Positions 1,084-41,340 of a stretch of 64,000 bases of DNA are shown here, piece by piece. Made by a program: the position numbers and the translations under genes. The stretch's first letter is position 1. Each line of letters starts with the position of its first letter. Source of the stretch: a bacterium (GTDB taxonomy: Bacteria > Zhuqueibacterota > QNDG01); the NCBI GenBank assembly GCA_021158245.1, contig JAGGVB010000058.1:24349-88348 (forward strand), given 5' to 3'. The notes under the pieces were generated by a model, which was not told the origin of the DNA, did no database searches, and worked only from the letters and a program-made list of their open reading frames with translations.

Positions 1084-2430
1084 TTAAACCAGAGCTTCTT
1101 TATACTCTTTTTCCTGAACTCCCCTTAAAGTAATCCCTCTCAGCTCTGTAATAATCAGATCAACAGGCTCGCCTGCCCTGGTATTGTTTTTTGGAAATAC
1201 AACCGGATAATTTCCTGCTGTTTTTCCTATCCATTCCTCGTTTGAATTTTTACTTGTCGTTTCCGGAATAACTTCAACTTTTTTACCCATCATATTTTTT
1301 CTCTTTAAAAGAGAGATATCTCTCTGGAGTGCAATAATAGAATCAAGCCTTTCGTGAATAATGTATTCGGGAATTTTATTTGTCATTTTTGCTGCTTTTG
1401 TTCCTTCACGCGGGGAAAATCTGTATGTAAAAGCGTCGTCAAATTTTATATCCTTCATCGTGTTAAATGTTCCATCAAAATCTTCATCGCTTTCTCCCGG
1501 AAATCCAACAATGATATCAGTTGTTAATGTAAGATCAGGTACAATAGTTTTTGCTTTTTCAACTATATCCATGTAATGGCCGATTGTATACCCACGGTTC
1601 ATAGCTTTAAGTACTCTGTCTGACCCTGCCTGCATGGGAAGGTGAAGATGAGGGCAGATTTTTTCATTTTCAGCCATTACTTTAAGAAGTTCAATAGAAA
1701 TATCTTTGGGATGCGAAGTAAGAAAGCGAACCCTTAAAATCCCAGGTATTCCTGAAGCTTTGCTTAAGAGGCCGGCAAAATTTGTTTCTCCGTCATTATA
1801 CGAGTTTACATTCTGCCCGAGAAGAGTAACATCTTTAGTTCCGCTCTGTGCCATTGAATAGAGCTCTTTAATTATATCTTGTGATGATCTGCTTCGCTCT
1901 CTTCCTCTTGTGTAGGGGACAATACAGTAAGAGCAGAAATTATTACATCCCCTCGCAATAGAGAGCCAGCCTGTTACATCTCCTGTGCGGGTAGGTTCAA
2001 TACCGGAATAGGTCTCTCCTGAATTCAACAGTGTATCAATACATGATCCGTCTGTATGTTCTGAAATCATGTCCGGAAGTTTTCTGTAAGAGTCCGGCCC
2101 TGCAATAAAATCTACATAAGGATAGTTTTTTATGATTTTTTCCGAAGAAACCTGAGCTACACACCCAATTACACCGAGCCTGCGGCCGGATTTCATACTT
2201 TTCCAGTTTTTAAAAACAGTTATCCGTCCCATTGCCCGCTGCTCTGCATGATCCCGTACTGCACATGTGTTTATTATAATAATGTCCGAATCTTCAGGCG
2301 AACCGGTTTCTTCATATCCTGAGTCCTTCAGGATTGTACGAACGAGTTCGGAGTCATATTTATTCATCTGACAGCCGTAAGTTTCAATGTAAAAACTTAC
2401 AGCCTTGTTTTTCAGTTGTTCTGTATTCAT
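1084..2430 (-). CDS. miaB: tRNA-i6A37 methylthiotransferase MiaB (radical SAM MTTase)
   Basis: N-terminal FYIETYGCQMN UPF0004 motif, radical-SAM CSYCIVPYTRG motif and a C-terminal TRAM-like region; 448 aa, typical MiaB length. Confidence 0.9.
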   Translation of the reverse strand: MNTEQLKNKAVSFYIETYGCQMNKYDSELVRTILKDSGYEETGSPEDSDIIIINTCAVRDHAEQRAMGRITVFKNWKSMKSGRRLGVIGCVAQVSSEKIIKNYPYVDFIAGPDSYRKLPDMISEHTDGSCIDTLLNSGETYSGIEPTRTGDVTGWLSIARGCNNFCSYCIVPYTRGRERSRSSQDIIKELYSMAQSGTKDVTLLGQNVNSYNDGETNFAGLLSKASGIPGILRVRFLTSHPKDISIELLKVMAENEKICPHLHLPMQAGSDRVLKAMNRGYTIGHYMDIVEKAKTIVPDLTLTTDIIVGFPGESDEDFDGTFNTMKDIKFDDAFTYRFSPREGTKAAKMTNKIPEYIIHERLDSIIALQRDISLLKRKNMMGKKVEVIPETTSKNSNEEWIGKTAGNYPVVFPKNNTRAGEPVDLIITELRGITLRGVQEKEYKEALV

Positions 2431-2607: not shown

Positions 2608-3123
2608 GTGCTCTGTTTCACAGGCAAATTTCCGTATGGTGTTGATTCAAAACGAAGAATCAACATTCCTGCCTCTGCAGTTAATGAGCTTTTCAGAGAG
2701 CATGAAGAGACTGGTAGCACTGATAATAAGAAAGAATTAAAGCAGACAGATATAATTTTTCATATAACCCGAGGGCCGAATGATTGCCTGTTTGTGTACC
2801 CGCGGGATGTTTTTGCGAGAAAAGCGGCACGCCTGAATTCACATTTTGGTTACAGAGGAACCGAAGATGATGAGGAGCGCCGCTATTTTCTTGAAACAGT
2901 CAGCGATGCTCATCCTGTGCGCTGTGACAATCAAGGGCGGATCACTGTTCCGCAGGAACATCTTGATTATGCAAAAATCAAGGATAAGGTTATGGTAATA
3001 GGCGCTATTGATCATCTCGAGCTTTGGAGCCCTGATATTTATAATATGTTTATTGCTCAGAGTTCTGCCACACCAAAAGACAGGGTTAGGCGCTATGGAT
3101 GGGTTGAAAAAGAAGATCAATGA
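2608..3123 (+). CDS. mraZ: Transcriptional regulator MraZ
   Basis: Two MraZ DXXXR motifs (VDSKRRINIP and DNQGRITVP), GTG start, first gene of the dcw cluster. Confidence 0.85.
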   Translation: MLCFTGKFPYGVDSKRRINIPASAVNELFREHEETGSTDNKKELKQTDIIFHITRGPNDCLFVYPRDVFARKAARLNSHFGYRGTEDDEERRYFLETVSDAHPVRCDNQGRITVPQEHLDYAKIKDKVMVIGAIDHLELWSPDIYNMFIAQSSATPKDRVRRYGWVEKEDQ

Positions 3124-4476: not shown

Positions 4477-6453
4477 TTGATGAGTGAAAAGACACGTTTA
4501 AAATTTGTGGGATTCTTATTTTTTTTCCTGATAGCGGGAGTGCTCGTGCGGACTTTTCATTTTCAGGTTGTTTCACGCGAACCGTGGAGTTCAATGGCTC
4601 CCAGGCAATATCAGGGCAGAGTCAAACTAATGGCCCACAGAGGGATTATCTATGACAGGCATATGAACATTATGGCTATGGATCTTCCCATCTATTCACT
4701 TGCCGTAGATCCGTCTATTATAAAAGATAAACAAAAGGCGGCCTTTTTCCTTTCGAAATCTTTGGGGCTTAACGAGCAGGAGTGCATTGATAAAATGTCT
4801 TCAGATGGAAGTAAGTCCTTTGTTTACATAAAGAAAGATATTTCAGAACAAGAGCAGATAAAATTGAAGAATTCCGGCATGCAGGGGCTGGTTTTTGTCC
4901 GTGAAAGAAAACGTGTGCGGCCTTTTGGAGATCTTGCAATTCAGACTATCGGTATTGTTAACAATAACAGGCAGGGAGTAGGCGGAGTTGAACAGGCTTT
5001 GAACGATTGGCTTGAAGGGCGGGACGGCTGGGCTATACTTCAGAAAGATGCGCGTAATAAAAAATTCACAAGCATTGATTATCCTGCAGAGCAGTCAAAG
5101 GATGGGCATCATGTCGTGCTTACAATTGATCATGCTTTCCAGTCTATTATAGAAGAAGAGATGAAGGCCAGTGTTGAAAAGTACAATGCTAAAAGCGGCA
5201 CAGCGGTTCTTATGGATCCGTTAACCGGTGATATTCTTGCAATATCTTCTGTAGTTGGGAAATACGGCAATGACAAGCCGAAGTTTAATCAGTTTATCAG
5301 AAACAGAGCTATTCAGGACTGTTTTGAGCCGGGGTCCATTTTTAAGGTTATGACTGCATCTGCAGCTTTGCAGACAGGCCAATTTAAAGTAAACACACTT
5401 ATTCATTGTGAAAACGGAGAATATACACTTGCAGGGCATAAGATACACGATCATAATGAGTCCTATGCATGGCTGACTCTTTCGCAGGTACTTGAGAAAT
5501 CATCAAATATCGGAATTGCAAAAGTGGGGCAGAAACTTGGCAGAAAGACACTGTTCAGGTATATCAGAGATTTTGGATTCGGAAACAGAACAGGCGTGGA
5601 TCTTCCCGGCGAAGAGCCCGGAATACTTCATCCAGCTTACGACTGGAATGAATTTGAAGTTGCAACAACCTCCTTCGGACAGGGAATTGCCGGAACAGCT
5701 CTTCAGATTGCAGATGCAGTATCTGCAGTTGCTAACGGAGGCAGACTTTTAAAACCTCTTATCTGGAAAAAAATTCTGGACAGCAGCGGTAAAGAGGTGC
5801 GTACTTCCGAGACAAAGGTGGTCAGGCGTGTTATCTCTGAAGAGACTGCATTTAAAATGAGAAGAATTCTTGAATCTGTTGTAAAGAACGGCAGCGGCCG
5901 TGCAGCTGGAGTGGAAGGAGTCAGAGTTGCAGGTAAAACCGGTACTGCACAGAAATCTTTACCAGGTATGAAAGGTTACGTACAAGGCGCCTATGTGAGC
6001 TCATTTGTAGGATTTTGGCCTGCTGATACACCATTTTTTGTTCTCGTTATTGTTTTTGACGAGCCTAAGGGAAGTTACTGGGGCTCACATACTGCAGCTC
6101 CTGTATTTTCTGCAATAGTATCACGGCTACAGGGAATTGCAGGCCCGGGAAGAATTCCGCGTTTGCCTCAGGAAAAAAATAAGGGCAGAAAGAGGATTGA
6201 TTTTGCATCTTACACAAAAGAGCTTCCTCTGAAGGCTGATAAAATATCACAAAAATCCCGCAAAGCCGTATCAATTCACTACCTGCCTGACCTTACGGGA
6301 TTTACTGTGCGCGATGCTCTCGAAATGCTGATAGACTATAAAATAAAGGTAAAAATAGAGGGTTGTGGTGTTGTATTAAGGCAGATACCAGGGCCGGGCA
6401 ATAAAGTTAAAAAGGGGATGATATGCCGGCTTATTTGCAATACCACTCTGTAA
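4477..6453 (+). CDS. ftsI: Peptidoglycan D,D-transpeptidase FtsI (class B PBP) with C-terminal PASTA domain
   Basis: N-terminal TM, PBP dimerisation domain and a transpeptidase domain (KTGTA motif: AGKTGTAQK). The C-terminal ~60 aa match the PASTA consensus (LPDLTGFTVRDALEMLIDYKIKVKIEG.G.V..Q.P.PG). Confidence 0.85.
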   Translation: MMSEKTRLKFVGFLFFFLIAGVLVRTFHFQVVSREPWSSMAPRQYQGRVKLMAHRGIIYDRHMNIMAMDLPIYSLAVDPSIIKDKQKAAFFLSKSLGLNEQECIDKMSSDGSKSFVYIKKDISEQEQIKLKNSGMQGLVFVRERKRVRPFGDLAIQTIGIVNNNRQGVGGVEQALNDWLEGRDGWAILQKDARNKKFTSIDYPAEQSKDGHHVVLTIDHAFQSIIEEEMKASVEKYNAKSGTAVLMDPLTGDILAISSVVGKYGNDKPKFNQFIRNRAIQDCFEPGSIFKVMTASAALQTGQFKVNTLIHCENGEYTLAGHKIHDHNESYAWLTLSQVLEKSSNIGIAKVGQKLGRKTLFRYIRDFGFGNRTGVDLPGEEPGILHPAYDWNEFEVATTSFGQGIAGTALQIADAVSAVANGGRLLKPLIWKKILDSSGKEVRTSETKVVRRVISEETAFKMRRILESVVKNGSGRAAGVEGVRVAGKTGTAQKSLPGMKGYVQGAYVSSFVGFWPADTPFFVLVIVFDEPKGSYWGSHTAAPVFSAIVSRLQGIAGPGRIPRLPQEKNKGRKRIDFASYTKELPLKADKISQKSRKAVSIHYLPDLTGFTVRDALEMLIDYKIKVKIEGCGVVLRQIPGPGNKVKKGMICRLICNTTL

Positions 6454-6457
6454 TTGT

Positions 6458-7924
6458 ATGATAACAAAAGAGCTGAAAAATCTCTGTATGTCTGCTGATT
6501 TGCCGGCTGAATACGACGGTACAATTGAGATTACCGGTATAAGCTGTGATTCAAGAGAAGTTAAGCCGGGATATCTTTTTGTCGCTGTACGCGGTTTAAA
6601 AACCGACGGACATTTATTTATCAGGAAAGCTGTTGAAAAAGGCGCTGCTGCTGTAATCGCCGAAGAATTTATTGAAAATATTAATGCCCCTCTGGTTCTT
6701 TGTGAAAATTCACGCAGAGTGCTTTCTCTTCTTGCAAAGAATTTTTACGGAGACCCTGCAAACAGCATGAAGCTTATCGGGGTTACAGGCACTAACGGAA
6801 AGACAACTACAACTTATTTTCTTGAATCTCTCTTCAGTGAGGCGGGAGAGAGCGTGGGAGTAATAGGCACATTAAATTACAGGTGGCCGGGGCATGAGGA
6901 AAATGCAGTGCGAACCACTCCTGATGCAGTGGGCCTTTACAGATATCTATATGAAATGAAGAAAAGCGGTGTAACGCTTGCTGTTGTGGAAGTATCTTCC
7001 CATGCTCTTGAGCAGTACAGAGTATTCGGGCTCTCCTTTACTGAAGCTGTATTTACGAATATATCCCACGATCATCTTGATTACCATCACACTATTGATG
7101 CATATGCAGTGGCAAAGGCCAAACTTTTCTCAATGGTAGATTCTGACGGGAAAAGCATAATAAATTATGATGATAAATTTTTTATGGCTATGGAAGCAGC
7201 TTCTTCCGCGGATGTGGCAGGATACGGAAAATCTCCTGAAGCTAAGTATCAAATTTTATCTGTCACTCCGTTTGACAGAGGAACAAGGTTTTCTTTGAAA
7301 ACCCCGGACGGAATTATCAATTTAACAATTTTTGTCTGGGGTATGTTCAATGTTTACAATGCAGCAGCAGCTGCTGCTGCAGGGTTTGAGATGGGATTGT
7401 CAAAAGAAAATGTGATTAAAGGAATAGCTTCCCTTAAAAGAGTTCCCGGCAGAATGGAAGGTATAAGATCAGCCGACGGAAGATTCAGGGTAATCATTGA
7501 TTATGCCCACACTCCGGATGCTCTTCAGAAAGTACTTGAATGTGCCAGAGAATTCACAGATAGAAAGCTTATTGTGGTTTTCGGCTGCGGCGGTGACAGG
7601 GACAGGGAAAAGAGGCCTGAGATGGGAAGGGCGGCTTATGTTTTTGCTGATGAGGTCTTTATAACCACTGATAATCCGCGAACAGAGGACCCTGATGAAA
7701 TTATTAATGAAATTATTGCAGGAGTGGGTAAAAAAAACCCGCAGATACATGTGATTTCTGACAGGGAAGAGGCAATAAAACAGGCAGTTGCATCAGCCGG
7801 AGAGGGAGATACTGTTGTTATTGCAGGTAAGGGGCACGAATCTTATCAGATTATCGGAGCAAAAAAAATTCCTTTCAGCGACAGAAAAATCGCAGAAAAA
7901 TATTTAATGCAAGGGCATAAATAA
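6458..7924 (+). CDS. murE: UDP-MurNAc-L-Ala-D-Glu:meso-DAP ligase MurE
   Basis: GVTGTNGKTTT P-loop and a DNPR motif (TTDNPRTEDP) indicating meso-DAP specificity; Mur ligase domain order. Confidence 0.9.
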   Translation: MITKELKNLCMSADLPAEYDGTIEITGISCDSREVKPGYLFVAVRGLKTDGHLFIRKAVEKGAAAVIAEEFIENINAPLVLCENSRRVLSLLAKNFYGDPANSMKLIGVTGTNGKTTTTYFLESLFSEAGESVGVIGTLNYRWPGHEENAVRTTPDAVGLYRYLYEMKKSGVTLAVVEVSSHALEQYRVFGLSFTEAVFTNISHDHLDYHHTIDAYAVAKAKLFSMVDSDGKSIINYDDKFFMAMEAASSADVAGYGKSPEAKYQILSVTPFDRGTRFSLKTPDGIINLTIFVWGMFNVYNAAAAAAAGFEMGLSKENVIKGIASLKRVPGRMEGIRSADGRFRVIIDYAHTPDALQKVLECAREFTDRKLIVVFGCGGDRDREKRPEMGRAAYVFADEVFITTDNPRTEDPDEIINEIIAGVGKKNPQIHVISDREEAIKQAVASAGEGDTVVIAGKGHESYQIIGAKKIPFSDRKIAEKYLMQGHK

Positions 7925-7925
7925 A

Positions 7926-9311
7926 ATGAAATTAACCCTTGGCGAAACAGCAGACCTTTTTAATGCTGCTCTCTCTTCTAAAGAGAGAGTAAAAAATGTG
8001 GAGTCTGTAGAAACAGACTCAAACAAATGCGGAAAAGGGTCCCTGTTTTTTGCATTAAAGGGTGAACGATTTGACGGCCATGATTTTGTAAATAATGTGA
8101 GAGAAAATGGAGGAATCGGAGCTGTAGTTGAAAGAGATGTGAATATTTCGGAAGAAGGCGGGCCTTTTGCGCTTATATATGTTGATAATACGTTAAAAGC
8201 CCTTCAGTACCTTGCATCTTTTTACAGAAGCAAGTTCAATCTGCCGGTAGCAGGTATAACAGGATCCAACGGAAAGACAACAACAAAGGAGATGACAGCA
8301 TCTGTTCTTTCAAAAAAATACAAGGTTGTAAAAACCTCCGGTAATCTTAACAATCATATCGGTGTTCCCTTGACAATTCTGTCATGGAAGGATGAACCGG
8401 AGTTTGCAGTGCTTGAAATGGGCGCTAATCATATCGGGGAGATCAAGAATCTCTGCAGTATTGCAAAGCCGGAATATGGAGTAATCACAAATATAGGCAG
8501 AGGGCACATAGGTTTTTTCGGATCAATTGACAATATTTTTAAAGCTAAAAGAGAGCTGGCTGATTCTCTTCCGGAAGGGGGAACACTTTTCCTTAACGGT
8601 GATGATGAAAGATTAAACCGGATAAAGCTAAATAATGTGAAAATAATCAGATACGGATTCAGCAGCAAGTGTGATATTAAGGGGAGTAACCCTCGTATAA
8701 ATTCCGGAGGAAATGCAGTGATGGATTTTAACGGAGCTGTAGTTACACTTAATTTGCCCGGCCTCCACAATCTTTACAACGGCCTTGCAGCTGCTGCTGT
8801 GGGAATATATACAGGGGTTTCTCTGCGGGATATTCAGGAATCACTTGAAGAATTCAGAGCTGTTGATAAAAGAACAGATGTTGTATTTACAAATCCCTTT
8901 ATTCTTATAAATGATGCATACAATGCTAACCCTGATTCAATGGAAGCTGCATTTGCTGCTGCAAAAGAGATGGCGGGGCAGGGTACAAATCTCATCGCAG
9001 TGCTCGGAGATATGTTTGAGCTTGGGAAATACAGCAGGAAAGAGCATCAGTCTGCAGGTGAGAAACTGGGATTGTATGGATTTAATACACTCTTCTGTAT
9101 TGGCAGAGACATGGCCTACACAGCCGAGACAGCAGAAAAATCGGGCCTTATACATGTCAGCCATTATTTATCTCAAAAAGATCTGATCCGGAATTTAATT
9201 GGCTATATCTCTCCAAATGATGTTGTGCTTGTAAAGGGGAGCAGAGGAATGCAGATGGAGAAGGTTGTGGATGAACTTAAACAATTAAAATTTCAAAACG
9301 CGGGAGAGTAA
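7926..9311 (+). CDS. murF: UDP-MurNAc-tripeptide:D-Ala-D-Ala ligase MurF
   Basis: GITGSNGKTTTKEM P-loop, Mur ligase middle and C-terminal domains, immediately after murE. Confidence 0.85.
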   Translation: MKLTLGETADLFNAALSSKERVKNVESVETDSNKCGKGSLFFALKGERFDGHDFVNNVRENGGIGAVVERDVNISEEGGPFALIYVDNTLKALQYLASFYRSKFNLPVAGITGSNGKTTTKEMTASVLSKKYKVVKTSGNLNNHIGVPLTILSWKDEPEFAVLEMGANHIGEIKNLCSIAKPEYGVITNIGRGHIGFFGSIDNIFKAKRELADSLPEGGTLFLNGDDERLNRIKLNNVKIIRYGFSSKCDIKGSNPRINSGGNAVMDFNGAVVTLNLPGLHNLYNGLAAAAVGIYTGVSLRDIQESLEEFRAVDKRTDVVFTNPFILINDAYNANPDSMEAAFAAAKEMAGQGTNLIAVLGDMFELGKYSRKEHQSAGEKLGLYGFNTLFCIGRDMAYTAETAEKSGLIHVSHYLSQKDLIRNLIGYISPNDVVLVKGSRGMQMEKVVDELKQLKFQNAGE

Positions 9312-9314
9312 ATT

Positions 9315-10427
9315 ATGCTCTTTCATATTCTTTATCCTCTGAGGGACCAGTTTATAGGTTTTAACCTTCTCGGATATATAACTTTTCGTTCAGCTTCGGC
9401 AGCTGTGACAGCTTTGCTTGTAACTTTTATCATCGGGCCTTTTATTCTCAAGTGGCTGAGGAAGAAACAGTTTAAAGAGATAATCAGAACTGAAACCCCT
9501 GATTCTCACAGACAAAAAGCTGGTACTGTGTCTATGGGCGGTATCATAATTATTATTGCAGTGCTGGTACCTGTACTTCTTTTTGCAAAACTTAACAATA
9601 TGTATACCCAGTTGATGATTATATCTACTCTGTGGATGGGTGCAGTAGGCTTTATGGATGACTATCTTAAAGTCGTAAAGAAGATGCCCAAGGGCCTTAT
9701 AGGAAGGTACAAGCTTTTAGGCCAGGTATTACTTGGGCTCCTGGTTGGCCTTGTTGTAACTTTCTCGCAGGAATATTCCGGTGTTAAACTTGGCGGGCAA
9801 GTTGTTAATGTCAGCTGGTACACAAGTATTCCGTTTTTCAAGAATCTTCTGATTAATTTCGGGTGGTTTTATCTGCCTGTTGTAATCATTGTAATTACAG
9901 GCACTTCCAATGCAGTAAACCTGACAGACGGCCTTGACGGCCTTGCAATCGGACTTGTGGGTATAGCTGCTGCTGCCTGGGCAGGTATGAGCTATGTAAC
10001 AGGCCGTGTGGATTTTAGTGACTACCTCAATGTCCTGTATCTGAAGAATGCGGGTGAACTTACTATTTACTGTTCTGCCCTGATAGGAGCATCTTTGGGA
10101 TTCTTATGGTTTAACAGCCACCCTGCATCAGTATTTATGGGTGACACAGGAGCTCTTGCACTCGGAGGTGCAATGGGTACAATGGCTGTGATTCTGAAGA
10201 AAGAGCTGCTGCTTTTTATAGTAGGAGGTGTTTTTGTAGCAGAAAGCCTTTCAGTGATTCTGCAGGTTGCTTCTTTCCGTCTCAGGGGAAAACGTATTTT
10301 TAAAATGGCTCCAATTCATCACCACTTTGAACTTTTGGGGTGGCCTGAAGAGAAGATAGTTGTCCGATTCTGGATAATAGGAATTTTACTTGCACTATTA
10401 GGCTTGAGTACATTTAAAGTCAGGTAA
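9315..10427 (+). CDS. mraY: Phospho-N-acetylmuramoyl-pentapeptide transferase MraY
   Basis: Polytopic membrane protein with the NAVNLTDGLDGLA and HHHFEL motifs characteristic of MraY. Confidence 0.9.
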   Translation: MLFHILYPLRDQFIGFNLLGYITFRSASAAVTALLVTFIIGPFILKWLRKKQFKEIIRTETPDSHRQKAGTVSMGGIIIIIAVLVPVLLFAKLNNMYTQLMIISTLWMGAVGFMDDYLKVVKKMPKGLIGRYKLLGQVLLGLLVGLVVTFSQEYSGVKLGGQVVNVSWYTSIPFFKNLLINFGWFYLPVVIIVITGTSNAVNLTDGLDGLAIGLVGIAAAAWAGMSYVTGRVDFSDYLNVLYLKNAGELTIYCSALIGASLGFLWFNSHPASVFMGDTGALALGGAMGTMAVILKKELLLFIVGGVFVAESLSVILQVASFRLRGKRIFKMAPIHHHFELLGWPEEKIVVRFWIIGILLALLGLSTFKVR

Positions 10428-14022: not shown

Positions 14023-14397
14023 ATGAAAAAACAGACAAAGATAGTTCTTGCTGAGAGTGAATCAATAATAGCTGAAGATGTAGCAAATCTTGTTAAAACG
14101 TGGGGTTTTGATCTTCTCGGACGTGCGACAACTCAGGATGAGCTGATGAAATTTGTAAAGGACTACAGGCCTGAAGTTATTATTTTTGATACTTTGCTGA
14201 GAGGTAAACGTGATACTTCTCTTATTGCACAGCAGATCTATAAAAAGTACGGCACATCTCTCGTTATTCTCGGGGATAGGACGGATTTGCAGGATGGAAA
14301 ATCGTTAAATAGAAAATTTTCATGGGTTGCAAAGCCGTTTAAAGAGGATGAATTGAAAAAGGCTGTAAAAAAAATGGCCTCAAAACGTGCTGCATAG
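14023..14397 (+). CDS. Stand-alone CheY-like receiver-fold protein with degenerate acidic pocket (pseudo-receiver?) inserted in the dcw cluster
   Basis: (beta-alpha)5 REC pattern: KIVLAESE (beta1, ESE replaces the usual DD), EVIIFDTLL (beta3, D at the phospho-acceptor position), SLVILGD (beta4) and AKPF (conserved Lys). I prefer the start at 14023 (ATG preceded by an AAAGGGG RBS) rather than the track start at 13984 inside murG. Confidence 0.5.
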   Translation: MKKQTKIVLAESESIIAEDVANLVKTWGFDLLGRATTQDELMKFVKDYRPEVIIFDTLLRGKRDTSLIAQQIYKKYGTSLVILGDRTDLQDGKSLNRKFSWVAKPFKEDELKKAVKKMASKRAA

Positions 14398-18822: not shown

Positions 18823-20016
18823 ATGAGTAACGGAAAAACGCTGGCGTTTGATTTTGCAGATGATGACAATGTCGTTGCAAAAATCAAAGTAATAGGTGTA
18901 GGAGGCGCAGGAGGAAATGCTATAAACCGTATGATTGAGGACGGTCTTACGGGTGTGGAGTTTATAGCAATTAATACTGATAAGCAGGCTCTTGACAACA
19001 ACAAAGCTCCTATGCGCATCCAAATAGGCAAGAATCTCACAAAAGGGCTTGGTGCGGGAGGCAATCCTGAGATGGGCCGAAAGGGGATTGAAGAGAACAA
19101 GGATGCAGTAATTGAGGCTATCTCGTCAACTGACATGGTTTTTATAACCTGCGGTATGGGCGGCGGTACAGGGACCGGAGCCGCACCTGTTGTTGCGGAA
19201 ATAGCAAAAGACCTTGGCGCACTTACTGTTGGAGTTGTTACAAAACCTTTTATGTTTGAAGGGAAAAAGAGGCAGGAGAGAGCTGCTCAGGGTATACAGA
19301 TGCTGAAAGAGAATGTTGATACTCTGATTGTTGTGCCTAACCAGAAACTGATAAGCCTTGTACCGAAACATACTCCTCTCGAACAGGCTTTCAGAGTAGC
19401 CGATGAGATTCTGCTTCATGCGACAAAGGGAATTTCTGATGTTATAAATGTTCCCGGATTGATAAACCTGGATTTTGCAGATGTCAGAACAATAATGAAT
19501 CAGATGGGTGATGCCATAATGGGTTCTTCGGTAGCAAGCGGAGAGAACAGAGCAAAAGAAGCAGCGGAGCAGGCAATATCAAGCCCTCTTATTGATGATG
19601 TATCAATCAGCGGGGCACAGGGAGTGCTTGTTAATATTACAGGCGGAAGCGATTTGAGCCTAAATGATATCAATGAAGCTACATCTGTAATTTATAATGC
19701 AGCAGGTGCTGACGCAAATATTATTTTCGGTGCAGTGATAGATAAAAGCATGAAAGAAGAAGTAAGGGTAACAGTTGTTGCAACCGGATTTCAGAAAAGC
19801 CGTTCAAAAGGCGGATTCAATTTTGGAAACGGACACGAAAAGAGAGATTTGGGCCTTTCGGAAAGTGAAGGAGACATACCGTTAATTAAAAAGTATTCGG
19901 AGGATCCCATTGTAAAAGCCATGGGAGGAGATTCCTTTGGTAATGACGGAGGCTTTTCTTTTGTCAGTAAGGATGATCTTGGAATTCCTGCTTTCATCAG
20001 AAGGAAGTTAGACTGA
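18823..20016 (+). CDS. ftsZ: Cell division GTPase FtsZ
   Basis: Tubulin signature [13 protein letters not shown] and N-terminal [18 protein letters not shown]. Confidence 0.95.
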
Positions 20017-20022
20017 TTTTAT

Positions 20023-21585
20023 ATGACTTTTCGTCAGAATAGTTCAGGATGGACGAGAGAACGTATAATCAGCTTTCACAGCCGGCTTTTAAATCAGGAA
20101 CTCGGGAAAAAAGAGCTAAAAAAAAGTGCTCTTGTGAAGGCAGTAGTCGTATTCCCCAATACCTACGGTGTAGGAATGGCGAATATGGGATTTCATACGG
20201 TTTATCGTTTTTTCAATGAACATCCGGGAATGTCCTGCGAGCGGGCTTTTTTTGATAAAATGTACGAAAGAAAGCAGGTACTGTCGCTTGAATCATCAAA
20301 GCCTCTGAATAATTTTGATCTGATTGGTTTTTCAGTTTCATTTGAGCTGGATATTATTAATATTATACGAATTCTTGTTCTTTCAAAAATTGCGCTTCTC
20401 TCTTCAAATCGTACAAAGCATGATCCTGTGATAATTGCAGGCGGCCCTGTTACAGGATTAAATCCCTCTCCATTACTGCCCTTTGTGGACGGCCTCCTTA
20501 TGGGCGACGGAGAGGAGGTTTTCAGGCTTATCGGCGATGTAATGACTGAAGCTAAAGAAAACCATCTATCACGTGCAGATATCTTGGAGACTCTGAGTAT
20601 GCTGCCGGGGATGTATGTTGAAGGCAGAACAAAGAAGGTTACGCGTCAGGTTCTTTTAAATCTTGACAAGTATCCGACTTATACACCGATAGTGAGTTCA
20701 AGAAGTCATTTTAAAAATATGTTTGTTACCGAATTAAGCAGAGGATGCCCTAGAAAATGTAAATTCTGTGCGGCAAGAGAGATATACAAACCTTTCAGGT
20801 ACAGGAGTCATGAAACTATTATAGGATCCATTAAAGAGTTTAATCCGGGTGCAAAACGGATAGGGCTTGAAGGGTCTGCTGTATCGGATTATCCGAAATT
20901 AACGGACTTATGCGAAAAGATCCTTGATATGGGATATGATATTTCATTTTCGTCTATCCGAGCTGATAAGATAACAGAGGCAATGCAGGATGTAGTAAAA
21001 CGAAGCAGGCTGCGTACTTTTACAATAGCTCCGGAAGCGGGTTCCGAGCGACTGCGATATTTAATTGGGAAAAAGATAGCTGACAGTGAAATACTAAAAG
21101 GAGTTGAAAAACTTGCGTATACGGAAGTCCGAATATTAAAACTTTATTTTATGATAGGCCTTCCTGAAGAAAAAGATGATGATGCAGAGGCAATTGCAGA
21201 TTTGACAAACAGGATTCAAAAAATATTTTCAGGGTCAAATAAGGGGAAACAAGTGCATTTAAGCATTAACACATTTATTCCAAAGCCTTTTACTCCTTTT
21301 GAATCCGAACCTGTTGCAAGAGAGAGAGATTTGGTAAGAAGGCGCAATATTGTTAAAAAAAGGATTGATAAAAAAATACATGTATCTGCAAAAAGTTCAA
21401 AAAGGGATATACTGCAATCAGTACTTGCTTTGGGAAACAGAGAAACCGGTTTGGCATTAATGGATTCAATACAACAAGGTATTACATGGAAAGAGGCCTT
21501 AATAAACAGAGATATTTTTCTTGATGAAATGATATTTACAGGAAGAGATAAAAGTGCAATAAAGGAGTGGGACTTTATTGATTGA
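20023..21585 (+). CDS. B12-binding-like / radical SAM domain protein, function unknown
   Basis: CxxxCxxC cluster (RGCPRKCKFCAA) about 240 aa from the N-terminus, preceded by a Rossmann-like B12-binding-type region. It lies 7 bp after the ftsZ stop on the same strand. Confidence 0.6.
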   Translation: MTFRQNSSGWTRERIISFHSRLLNQELGKKELKKSALVKAVVVFPNTYGVGMANMGFHTVYRFFNEHPGMSCERAFFDKMYERKQVLSLESSKPLNNFDLIGFSVSFELDIINIIRILVLSKIALLSSNRTKHDPVIIAGGPVTGLNPSPLLPFVDGLLMGDGEEVFRLIGDVMTEAKENHLSRADILETLSMLPGMYVEGRTKKVTRQVLLNLDKYPTYTPIVSSRSHFKNMFVTELSRGCPRKCKFCAAREIYKPFRYRSHETIIGSIKEFNPGAKRIGLEGSAVSDYPKLTDLCEKILDMGYDISFSSIRADKITEAMQDVVKRSRLRTFTIAPEAGSERLRYLIGKKIADSEILKGVEKLAYTEVRILKLYFMIGLPEEKDDDAEAIADLTNRIQKIFSGSNKGKQVHLSINTFIPKPFTPFESEPVARERDLVRRRNIVKKRIDKKIHVSAKSSKRDILQSVLALGNRETGLALMDSIQQGITWKEALINRDIFLDEMIFTGRDKSAIKEWDFID

Positions 21586-21952
21586 AAAGATGAGGAGAGG
21601 AGCCGTGATAAAATCAAGTATTTCAAGGAATTCAATGCCCGATATTTTTCTTTACAAAGGACAGATGGTAATTCCGGATTATGAATTGGCAAGTTATTAT
21701 GGCGTTAATACTGATACATTGCGTGATGTTTTTGCAAAGCATGAAAGTTTGTTTCCGGGAAGTATGGTTTTTTCAGTTAAAGGTTCGGAAAAGAAGAAGA
21801 AAAGTACCACGAACAAGGCATCGGGAACATTACTTTTTACAGAGCAGTCTGCAACACTTATTGCAGGGTTGATTAAAGATACTGAAGCACTTAAAGCTAA
21901 TATGAGACTTTTGAGGCTGTTCAGGCTTCTGGATTATATTGTTGCTACGTAA
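21578..21952 (+). CDS. ORF6N (KilA-N-like) domain protein, putative DNA-binding
   Basis: YKGQMVIPDYELASYYGVNTDTLRDVFAKHESLFPGSMVFSV matches the ORF6N domain pattern (RGQ.VMLD.DLA.LYGV....L...V.RN..RFP..F.F.L). It overlaps the radical-SAM gene end by 8 nt. Confidence 0.45.
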   Translation: MIEKMRRGAVIKSSISRNSMPDIFLYKGQMVIPDYELASYYGVNTDTLRDVFAKHESLFPGSMVFSVKGSEKKKKSTTNKASGTLLFTEQSATLIAGLIKDTEALKANMRLLRLFRLLDYIVAT

Positions 21953-22017
21953 TTAGTGCTTTGCCTGATATTTTTATTTTAATAAACAAGATGTTTCTTT
22001 TAATCCTGTTTAATTGA

Positions 22018-22122
22018 GTGGAAAGTTATAAAGTGGAAAGTTATAAAGTTGAAAGTTGTAAAGTGAAAAGTTATAAAGTGGAAAGTTATAAAGTGGAAAG
22101 TTATAAAGTATAAAGCTGTAAA
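22018..22122. repeat. Tandem repeat, 7 x 15 bp (consensus GTGGAAAGTTATAAA)
   Basis: Read directly: gtggaaagttataaa x2, gttgaaagttgtaaa, gtgaaaagttataaa, gtggaaagttataaa x2, gtataaagctgtaaa; intergenic, upstream of pepF. Confidence 0.9.
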
Positions 22123-22367
22123 GCCTTCCGTTGATCCTCTGTCTATACAAAATTTTCATTTTGTTGTATAGGCCTTAAAACCACCATTGCTTTTTCTGAA
22201 GAGCTGTTTTTGTTAATAACTTAAAAAAGAATTCTATAAAATATTTTGTTTTTAACCTTGATTATTGTAATATTAAAGTTCTTAAATTGTTTCCCTGTTA
22301 ATAGAGATCAGGGAGACAAAGCAGTAAAATTAAAGGTTTAATAAAGGTTTTAAGGAGTTTTATTAAT

Positions 22368-37960: not shown

Positions 37961-38036
37961 ACAAACTTTATGAACTTTACAAACTTTATGAACTTTATAA
38001 CTTTATGAACTTTATAACTTTATGAACTTTATAATT
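37961..38036. repeat. Tandem repeat, about 8 x 9 bp (AACTTTATG/A), 17-bp higher-order unit AACTTTATGAACTTTATA
   Basis: CTTTAT recurs at 37966, 37975, 37984, 37994, 38001, 38010, 38018 and 38027. The core TTTATAACTTT is the reverse complement of AAAGTTATAAA in the 22018-22122 array. Confidence 0.85.
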
Positions 38037-39440: not shown

Positions 39441-40791
39441 TAATAAACATTTTTGTATTTAACGTACGTTCAAAAAAATATTCATGCAGGGTTGAAACAA
39501 CATGTTTTATATCCTGCTCATCAATTACAAAACTGATATTTATTTCAGAAGCTCCCTGTGAAACCATATGAATAGGTACATCATTGAACAGATGGAATAT
39601 TCTTCCCATTATTGAAGGGTCATTTTTTAAAGTGCTGCCTACCACACAGACAATAGCTTTATTCTGCTGAAATTCAACTTTTGCAAATTCCTTAAGTTCC
39701 ATGATTATCTCATGAAGATGTTCCGTTTTGTAAATTGTAATTGAGACACTTACTTCTGACGTTGTTACAAGGTCTACAGGTGTTTCAAATTTATCAAAAA
39801 CTTTAAATATCGCAGACATAAATCCATAAGCCATCAGCATTCTTGTGGAAGTCACTGTAATTACAGTTATTCCCTCTTTGTAGGCAATTGATTTAACAAG
39901 TCCTGGTTCAGAAGGTACACTTTGGTCAAAGGTTATGAGAGTACCCTGTTCCGACGGATGCATGGAATTAAGAACTACTACCGGGATATTTTTTTCAATG
40001 GCCGGAATAAGCGTTGCAGGATGAAGAACTTTTGCTCCGAAATATGCAAGTTCCGCAGCTTCGTTAAAAGTCATCTGTTTTATCCTTCTTGCCTCGGATA
40101 TAATTGAAGGGTCAGCAGTAAGCACACCGTCAACATCTGACCATATCTCCACTCTGTCTGCTTCGAGAAGCGCACCGAATATAGTTGCTGAGTAGTCAGA
40201 GCCTCCCCGTCCCAGAGTTGTAGTTCTGCCAGAATTGTCACTTCCTACAAATCCCTGAATAACAGGTATTATTCCTTTGTCGGTGAGAGGGATGAGATAC
40301 TTCTTAATTCGTACAAATGAGGATGTCAAGTCAGGTTTTGCACAGCCGAAAGAACTGTCTGTAAGAAGAATATCCCGGGCGTCTGCCATTTGTGAATTTA
40401 TACCGCTTTTCCTCAGATTTGCAGATAGAAGATTTGCAGACAGAAACTCTCCTGTGCTGACAATTGAATCTGATATCTCAGGAGTGCATTGTGCTTCCGA
40501 AGATACTATCTCTTCTAAAAATGAGAAAGCGAATAATAAGCACTCTTCCCATTCAGAATCATGCAAAAACAGAAGCTCTCCTGTCATTATGTGGCGTTTT
40601 TTAATGTCAGATATTATCTCGTTTTTATTAGTATTTTTTTTACATAGCCTTAAAAGATTGTCTGTTACTCCGCTCATTGCAGAAACAACTATTATGGGAT
40701 TTTCCTGTTTCCTTGATTTTATTATGTTTGTTGCTCTCTGGACAGCTTCTGCATCTTTAAGAGAGGTACCTCCGAACTTCATCACTATCAT
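39421..40791 (-). CDS. lysC: Aspartate kinase (ACT-domain regulated)
   Basis: N-terminal MIVMKFGGTSL kinase motif and C-terminal tandem ACT domains. I place the start at 40791 (ATG with AAAGGAAAA SD); the track start at 40845 lies inside a terminator hairpin. Confidence 0.85.
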   Translation of the reverse strand: MIVMKFGGTSLKDAEAVQRATNIIKSRKQENPIIVVSAMSGVTDNLLRLCKKNTNKNEIISDIKKRHIMTGELLFLHDSEWEECLLFAFSFLEEIVSSEAQCTPEISDSIVSTGEFLSANLLSANLRKSGINSQMADARDILLTDSSFGCAKPDLTSSFVRIKKYLIPLTDKGIIPVIQGFVGSDNSGRTTTLGRGGSDYSATIFGALLEADRVEIWSDVDGVLTADPSIISEARRIKQMTFNEAAELAYFGAKVLHPATLIPAIEKNIPVVVLNSMHPSEQGTLITFDQSVPSEPGLVKSIAYKEGITVITVTSTRMLMAYGFMSAIFKVFDKFETPVDLVTTSEVSVSITIYKTEHLHEIIMELKEFAKVEFQQNKAIVCVVGSTLKNDPSIMGRIFHLFNDVPIHMVSQGASEINISFVIDEQDIKHVVSTLHEYFFERTLNTKMFINVEHGA

Positions 40792-40854: not shown

Positions 40855-41050
40855 GATATTTTTAAAGTCCCGGAATGATTAAATAGCGCTCCACGGACTG
40901 TTCCGTGACAGACCGGCTGTTGTTCACGAACCGGGCCGACAAACAAACTTGCGGATATTTGTCTGTCTCGGCCTGCTTTCCTTTCTTTTCCGGGAAAATT
41001 GCCTCCGCGGGCATCCCCGAAAGGTACTGATAAAACAGGCACCTCTATCT
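40855..41050 (-). promoter_or_regulatory. Lysine riboswitch (L-box, Rfam RF00168-like) aptamer
   Basis: Minus-strand RNA starts ...UAGAUAGAGGUGCC...AGUA and contains GAAAGG...GCCGAG, CUGUCACGGAAC and GUGGAGCGCUAUUU. These parallel the conserved L-box segments of the B. subtilis lysC leader (GAUAGAGGUGCGAAC...GAGUA, GGCUGUCAAGAAA, UGGAGGGCUAUCU). It lies 5' of lysC-lysA, with a -35 TTGCAT / -10 TATTAT promoter at about complement(41065-41093). Confidence 0.65.
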
Positions 41051-41340
41051 AATCGAATTTGAATATAATAAAGAATGAAATGCATTGATGCAAGCATTTT
41101 CTGTAAAAATTAAAATATTTGTTGTGTTTAAAGGGGAAAATCGTATATTTTTAGTGTAGCATCCGATATCAATGTTTATCCCTTACTTCCCGGATTATAC
41201 TGCTAATGATTTTTAATTATCATCTATAACAGCCCTGAGCTGGAATCTGCTTCGGGCTGTTTTTATAAATTATTGCATAATTTTTTGAGATAATTTAACA
41301 CGATTTGTTTGTTAATAAATTTAATTACACTTCGTAAATT

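Follow-up and report, generated by a model that had tools for sequence, protein, structure and literature searches.

A radical-SAM gene kept behind ftsZ in several phyla and a clade-confined ORF6N gene at the tail of a bacterial division cluster

We examined two genes that follow ftsZ in a 64,000-nt stretch (the window) of contig JAGGVB010000058.1, from a bacterium of the Zhuqueibacterota: a gene for a radical S-adenosylmethionine (SAM) protein of 520 aa (rSAM; 20023-21585, + strand) and a short gene for an ORF6N-domain protein (ORF6N; 21605-21952, + strand). Our reading, to which we give a probability of about 0.6, is that rSAM encodes a vertically inherited enzyme of the tail of the cluster of division and cell wall (dcw) genes, and that ORF6N is a later addition, confined to one clade and then kept. 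Neither gene is a recent mobile insertion. GenBank already annotates both (MCD6116007.1 and MCD6116008.1), and open reading frame (ORF) calls together with Pfam domains uphold the initial annotation of this DNA in that both genes are real and lie downstream of ftsZ on its strand. Both proteins belong to known families, and the finding is ordinary for the phylogenetic neighborhood of the window; the part worth pursuing is the synteny of ftsZ, rSAM and often pgeF that spans phyla.

Conservation of rSAM behind ftsZ

The window contains a complete dcw cluster on the + strand, from mraZ (2608-3123) and rsmH/mraW through to murG, murC, murB, ftsQ, ftsA and ftsZ. The last of these (18823-20016, +; TIGR00065 437.7 bits, Tubulin and FtsZ_C domains) is the conserved upstream neighbor of rSAM. 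Direct reading of the sequence gives a spacer of 6 nt between them (20017-20022, +; TTTTAT), so that the tight junction previously described stands while its length of 7 bp does not; close relatives (L085-L089) have 7-39 nt at this place. A sequence scan of the stretch found no terminator-like site between ftsZ, rSAM and the end of ORF6N, which makes co-transcription of the three genes plausible, and rSAM would probably be expressed by read-through from ftsZ.

Distant relatives were collected in a scan with one genome per species, the best 80 loci being listed (30-37% identity to rSAM), and their upstream neighbors were identified by tblastn with the window's own division proteins; seven closer relatives were fetched individually. 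Cultured carriers in the scan include Selenomonas caprae, Megasphaera hexanoica, Thermoanaerobacterium sp. and Desulfobacterium sp. N47. In 36 of the 75 distant loci with enough upstream sequence, FtsZ is encoded directly upstream of rSAM and on its strand, usually preceded by the series murG-murC-murB-ftsQ-ftsA. The arrangement is found in Acidobacteriota (10/11), Desulfobacterota (15/22) and other “Deltaproteobacteria” metagenome-assembled genomes (MAGs) (5/9, of which 7 were testable), and also in Myxococcota, Binatia, Ignavibacteria and Nitrospirota. Six of the seven closer relatives keep it, at 76%, 59%, 56%, 47%, 47% and 41% rSAM identity, and the remaining one (39%) has lost it. In all, rSAM stands after ftsZ in at least six phyla, and a neighbor-joining tree of the rSAM proteins roughly tracks phyla, with the window protein grouping with an Ignavibacteria sequence. 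Contiguity with ftsA-ftsZ thus holds across taxa for rSAM, and within one clade only for ORF6N. Because it is found across phyla and is kept in most of the closer relatives, the ftsZ-rSAM arrangement is, on these comparisons, ancestral and widespread rather than an insertion. The ancestral position would be the 3′ end of the cluster of division and cell wall genes, which would run ftsA-ftsZ-rSAM(-pgeF/ylmD). A link of rSAM to division, as earlier proposed, finds its support in synteny alone.

The dcw cluster is among the most studied of bacterial gene clusters, mostly in organisms without the rSAM gene. Full-text literature searches with identifiers and term combinations returned nothing relevant on TIGR03960, DUF2344, PF19864, or radical SAM together with ftsZ or dcw, and the word “radical” is absent from the papers on dcw evolution that were searched in full text. 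Since rSAM is kept right after ftsZ, and often before pgeF, across Acidobacteriota, Desulfobacterota, Myxococcota, Nitrospirota, Ignavibacteria and Negativicutes, it offers a concrete candidate, open to testing, for a function in division or the envelope that is still missing.

The gene after rSAM is pgeF/ylmD (PF02578) in 26 distant loci: this order occurs in nine of ten Negativicutes, all three Nitrospirota and several Chloroflexota. The gap is 19-160 nt in Negativicutes, Nitrospirota and some Chloroflexota, while pgeF lies about 1 kb downstream in Acidobacteriota; in Thermoanaerobacterium (L079) an rSAM-pgeF pair stands about 4 kb after ftsA-ftsZ. Such closeness would also be expected if PgeF/YlmD, and not FtsZ, were the conserved partner of rSAM, the pair then working on the chemistry of nucleosides or peptidoglycan precursors; PgeF might, for instance, clear 5′-deoxyadenosine or methylthioadenosine (MTA) that rSAM makes. 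Yet no pgeF homolog was found in the 64-kb window or in a tblastn screen of Desulfobacterota loci. Moreover ylmD also follows ftsZ in genomes without rSAM (the Bacillus ylm operon), so that rSAM and pgeF may be merely old residents of the cluster tail. On this balance we consider PgeF very unlikely to be the true partner, even though its biochemistry counts in favor: the homolog FAMIN cleaves 5′-deoxyadenosine and YfiH converts MTA to adenine (PMC6978800), and YfiH also edits UDP-MurNAc-peptides (PMC8844914). Given the activities of these homologs, PgeF could clear the by-product of rSAM in those relatives that carry pgeF.

Family and possible chemistry of the rSAM protein

The rSAM protein matches Radical_SAM_N2 (PF19864, 7.8e-41) and Radical_SAM (PF04055, 2.8e-17). 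The PF04055 core (20731-21204, +; aa 237-394) scores 63.8 bits against a cut-off of 29.5 and contains the CX3CX2C [4Fe-4S]/SAM motif as CPRKCKFC (20746-20769, +), which together place the protein in the radical SAM superfamily. The cysteines of the motif (C242, C246 and C249) are invariant across an alignment of 32 homologs, and the sole further invariant cysteine is C72 in the N-terminal domain. The architecture is a Rossmann-like, cobalamin-type module (20188-20619, +; aa 56-199), a radical-SAM barrel and a helical C-terminal domain. Judged by its sequence, the protein is equipped to generate the 5′-deoxyadenosyl radical and has a class-B-like fold: SAM would be cleaved to the radical via the three-cysteine cluster motif, and the N-terminal module is predicted to be of the type in which class B enzymes hold cobalamin. 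The description “B12-binding” given in the initial annotation agrees with an NCBIfam family name and with this fold similarity, but not with Pfam, where B12-binding (PF02310) does not match the protein at E<=0.01. As AprD4 has this fold too, cobalamin use is a possibility only.

The NCBIfam family in question, TIGR03960 (uncharacterized “B12-binding radical SAM”; rSAM_fuse_unch), is the best curated profile (6.1e-96), yet at 322.3 bits the protein falls below its cut-off of 462.3, matching in two stretches and ending at profile position 527 of 605. All characterized radical-SAM subfamily profiles of NCBIfam score it far under their cut-offs, so the profile searches place it in no well-characterized housekeeping family, and the earlier statement that it has no assignable substrate holds. 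The dcw-linked relatives score 363-496 bits on TIGR03960, on either side of the cut-off, whereas a protein in which rSAM is fused to DUF2344 (L084) reaches 699.9 bits and matches TIGR03936 too. One deltaproteobacterial MAG contig (L044) holds both types 3 kb apart (309-1955 and 5117-9330), the fused copy being followed by an RNase E/G gene, and the DUF2344-fused form falls outside in the neighbor-joining tree. Because both types coexist in L044 and the dcw-linked scores straddle the cut-off, the window protein is placed in a paralogous, shorter sister group of TIGR03960 that has no curated model of its own.

Common to rSAM and the TIGR03960 family are the Radical_SAM_N2 plus Radical_SAM architecture and the invariant motifs. 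The differences are that rSAM lacks the last ~80 profile positions and has no DUF2344 either as a domain or as a gene in the window (tblastn with the DUF2344 part of L084 found no match there or beside the dcw-linked relatives), and that the dcw-linked type adjoins ftsZ or pgeF rather than RNase E/G, although one genome may hold both. The TIGR03960 family itself has no assigned function, its partner being TIGR03936/DUF2344. The YgiQ (UPF0313) label that JGI attaches to relatives of rSAM mirrors a broad COG only, and was rejected for rSAM: the 20 NCBIfam matches at E<=0.01 include no YgiQ-family model.

A search of PDB sequences with rSAM found no close relative; the best match (9ccb, 7e-8) is MgmA/QCMT, a B12-dependent radical-SAM glutamine C-methyltransferase of methyl-coenzyme M reductase (PMC11796369). 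MgmA is the nearest solved relative. It differs in that identity to rSAM is 20% (TIGR04014 52 bits against a cut-off of 360) and in being archaeal and tied to methanogenesis, and cobalamin use and methyl transfer are only predicted for rSAM. This similarity, together with the lack of a second Fe-S site, makes protein C-methylation the most economical guess. We tentatively suggest that rSAM modifies a macromolecule, most likely by protein C-methylation as in MgmA, and that the substrate would be one needed in step with division or envelope growth.

The main rival to this suggestion is that rSAM has a housekeeping task, modifying RNA or the ribosome as RimO and MiaB do; its place after ftsZ would then serve only to keep its expression in step with growth, and it would take no direct part in division. 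An RNA or ribosome substrate is indeed suggested by the folds of RimO and MiaB and by the paralog's position beside RNase E/G. Against this, rSAM has no UPF0004 or TRAM match, and one invariant N-domain cysteine (C72) in place of a three-cysteine auxiliary site; MiaB/RimO profiles score it at 36-38 bits against cut-offs of 251-357 (TIGR00089 36 against 251), and a true methylthiotransferase is encoded separately in the window (1084-2430, -). The best fold match is moreover a protein methylase, and linkage to ftsZ and pgeF persists across phyla. We regard this rival as doubtful, if a serious possibility. For a radical-SAM enzyme influencing septation there is a precedent in E. coli QueE, which acts as a division inhibitor (PMC4974570); QueE belongs to an unrelated subfamily (its profile gives 17.7 bits on rSAM), is encoded outside the dcw cluster, and affects division as a moonlighting activity.

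The ORF6N gene and its slot

The second gene was described as overlapping rSAM, which requires the TTG at 21578, the start of the mechanical longest ORF (124 aa). This probably does not hold: its orthologs align no further upstream than the residue that GTG 21605 encodes, the GenBank protein (MCD6116008.1, 115 aa) has the same start, and direct reading finds a Shine-Dalgarno-like stretch, GAGGAGAGGAG (21592-21602, +), upstream of it. With ortholog alignment, this stretch and the GenBank call all pointing to GTG 21605, the junction is most likely a gap of 19 nt, compared with 19 nt in L085 and 17 nt in L087.

The 115-aa protein scores 39.1 bits on the ORF6N domain (PF10543; gathering cut-off 27.8) over profile positions 3-82 of 86, which confirms an occupant as unusual for a dcw operon as had been remarked. 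A PDB sequence search with the ORF6N profile found no meaningful match. The predicted model (pLDDT 78) combines a beta-hairpin and helices with a long helix at the C-terminus, and resembles Dachshund, baculovirus Orf22-N, pSK1 Par, RacA, MerR-type regulators and Mbp1/APSES domains; on this model the protein most likely binds DNA. Its likeness to the ORF6N and KilA-N domains of phage anti-repressors lies in the PF10543 score, in PHROG anti-repressor families that match the same 95 residues, and in the APSES/Mbp1- and winged-helix-like predicted fold. It differs in being the domain alone, without a C-terminal ANT/KilA-C-type module, and in that its gene lies on the chromosome as the fixed last member of a housekeeping operon; it also forms a tiny subfamily apart. 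An Ant-type phage anti-repressor was rejected, since only the N-domain region of phrog_4792 is matched (positions 16-119 of 268) and the context is a dcw operon.

A profile of the orthologs finds ORF6N in only four lineages: that of the window (L001-L004), L085, L086/L093 and L087/L092. In every carrier it stands immediately after the rSAM gene that follows ftsZ, and carriers extend down to 56% rSAM identity, so that the pair is not absent beside ftsZ in relatives. A HMMER search of 1.84 billion (1.84e9) representatives returned two 50%-identity ORF6N clusters at 1e-56 or better, beyond which scores fall to 1e-11, the general ORF6N family, with 1561 matches at <=1e-3. Against L085, the ratio of nonsynonymous to synonymous substitution rates (dN/dS) is 0.079 for ORF6N, 0.14 for rSAM and 0.034 for FtsZ, and the dN of ORF6N (0.099) is close to that of rSAM (0.135); across its four lineages the ORF6N dN/dS is 0.08-0.19. 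By these rates ORF6N is a working gene under purifying selection that diverges in step with its neighbors.

Outside this clade the slot behind rSAM holds other genes. Relatives at 47% rSAM identity have there a conserved but unrelated ORF of 71-74 aa (L088 7587-7802; L089 7628-7852) with the motif HYFDxNGALRSG and no Pfam match, and a KSB1 genome (L090 7940-8355) has a HicAB toxin-antitoxin pair. The small ORFs were ruled out as diverged ORF6N (18-23% identity, no Pfam match). Since its contents differ between relatives, the operon tail is a variable landing site in which ORF6N became fixed in one clade. The proposal that rSAM and ORF6N form one system is not supported: outside one narrow clade rSAM occurs without ORF6N, and unrelated genes then fill the slot. 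ORF6N may be pictured as a KilA-N/winged-helix-like DNA-binding domain standing by itself, which probably stems from a mobile element, came to lie in this slot and was kept.

We also weighed whether the two genes came in jointly behind ftsZ, as a small mobile element or what remains of a prophage; a small integrated element had been offered in the initial annotation. The ORF6N domain is one typically seen in phage anti-repressors (phrog_4792, 1.2e-5), the same slot is taken by HicAB or other small ORFs in other lineages, and synteny with relatives breaks 2 nt past the ORF6N stop: similarity to L085 DNA, 80.8% over 7.9 kb, ends at 21954, after which the relatives run on with dapE-lysC-dapB-dapA-dapD and the window with pepF. 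But the adjacency of rSAM to ftsZ spans phyla, with a tree that roughly follows them; both genes have ordinary GC (rSAM 0.386, ORF6N 0.362, window mean 0.39); no tRNA or element-bounding long inverted repeat lies nearby (integrase was not screened for); and ORF6N is held in one slot in all four of its lineages under purifying selection. For rSAM these comparisons largely refute the mobile-element reading already, and for the pair as a unit we give it hardly any credence.

Another alternative is that ORF6N serves anti-phage defense on its own, as a gene of PADLOC's candidate type PDC-S05, and simply happens to lie at the operon end. PDC-S05 profiles match it at 5.1e-13, 1.1e-8 and 2e-7. The match goes no further than the shared ORF6N domain (profile positions 15-122 of 177), beyond which the protein has nothing more, and PDC-S05 is a candidate rather than a validated system. 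Defense genes are usually patchy in distribution; ORF6N, unlike them, has one fixed slot and has diverged as fast as its neighbors, which are housekeeping genes. A defense role therefore seems very improbable.

Rather, ORF6N could act, in co-expression with the division genes, as a small regulator that binds DNA or as a nucleoid-associated factor, a role that we think possible though a little short of an even chance. An analogy of arrangement only is offered by MraZ, also a small DNA-binding protein inside the same operon; MraZ differs in being encoded by the first gene, in its fold (PF02381, 2608-3123) and in being near-universal, while ORF6N is last and lineage-specific. On our reading ORF6N shows, on a small scale, a DNA-binding domain of phage type turned into a fixed, selected part of a core operon. 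Speculatively, and with rather low expectation, the short TIGR03960-like rSAM may be an unrecognized, widely conserved division accessory of non-model phyla, using radical chemistry to modify FtsZ, FtsA or a precursor of the septal cell wall (possibly by B12-dependent methylation), while in the lineage of the window a domesticated ORF6N, whether regulator or nucleoid-linked factor, would tie the tail of the operon to the chromosome.

Downstream spacer and other features of the window

The conserved block is closed by a spacer of 26% GC (21953-22367) that contains a 15-bp tandem array, AGTGGAAAGTTATAA, in ~6-7 copies (22017-22123). The array was rejected as a conserved binding site of ORF6N because the spacers of L085, L086, L087 and L092 have no array or shared motif, and no conserved candidate DNA site for ORF6N was found in the orthologous spacers. 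It was likewise rejected as a second set of MraZ boxes, since CCCTAAAA-type repeats are found upstream of mraZ instead; the heptamer AAAGTGG is not enriched in the window (9 found against 10.4 expected). A second AT-rich tandem array, AACTTTATG / AACTTTAT, is found at 37964-38034; as its reverse complement, it has ATAAAGTT in common with the first. The idea that the two arrays (22.0 kb and 38.0 kb) bound an inversion or an element was rejected, no extended inverted repeat having been found.

After the spacer comes pepF, which in the near-identical assembly L001 (12343-13449) is split (a 282-aa call; two tblastn pieces), perhaps by a frameshift or through an error of assembly. Ahead of a lysC-like gene (39484-40791, -) stands a lysine riboswitch (104 bits; 40876-41055, -); no such riboswitch was found between ORF6N and the dap genes of the relatives.

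Within the dcw operon, an ORF of 124 aa between murG and murC (14023-14397, +) is receiver-domain-like, with a Response_reg score of 23.4 bits that is under the cut-off, and occupies the same place in L085-L087 and L089. Beyond mraZ, and divergent from it, lies the canonical MiaB/RimO-type methylthiotransferase gene at 1084-2430 (-), with UPF0004, Radical_SAM and TRAM domains, so that radical-SAM genes flank the dcw cluster on both sides. Immediately upstream of mraZ are CCCTAAAA repeats (2520-2580) with a partial inverted copy, CTTAGG; these may be the MraZ operator of this organism.
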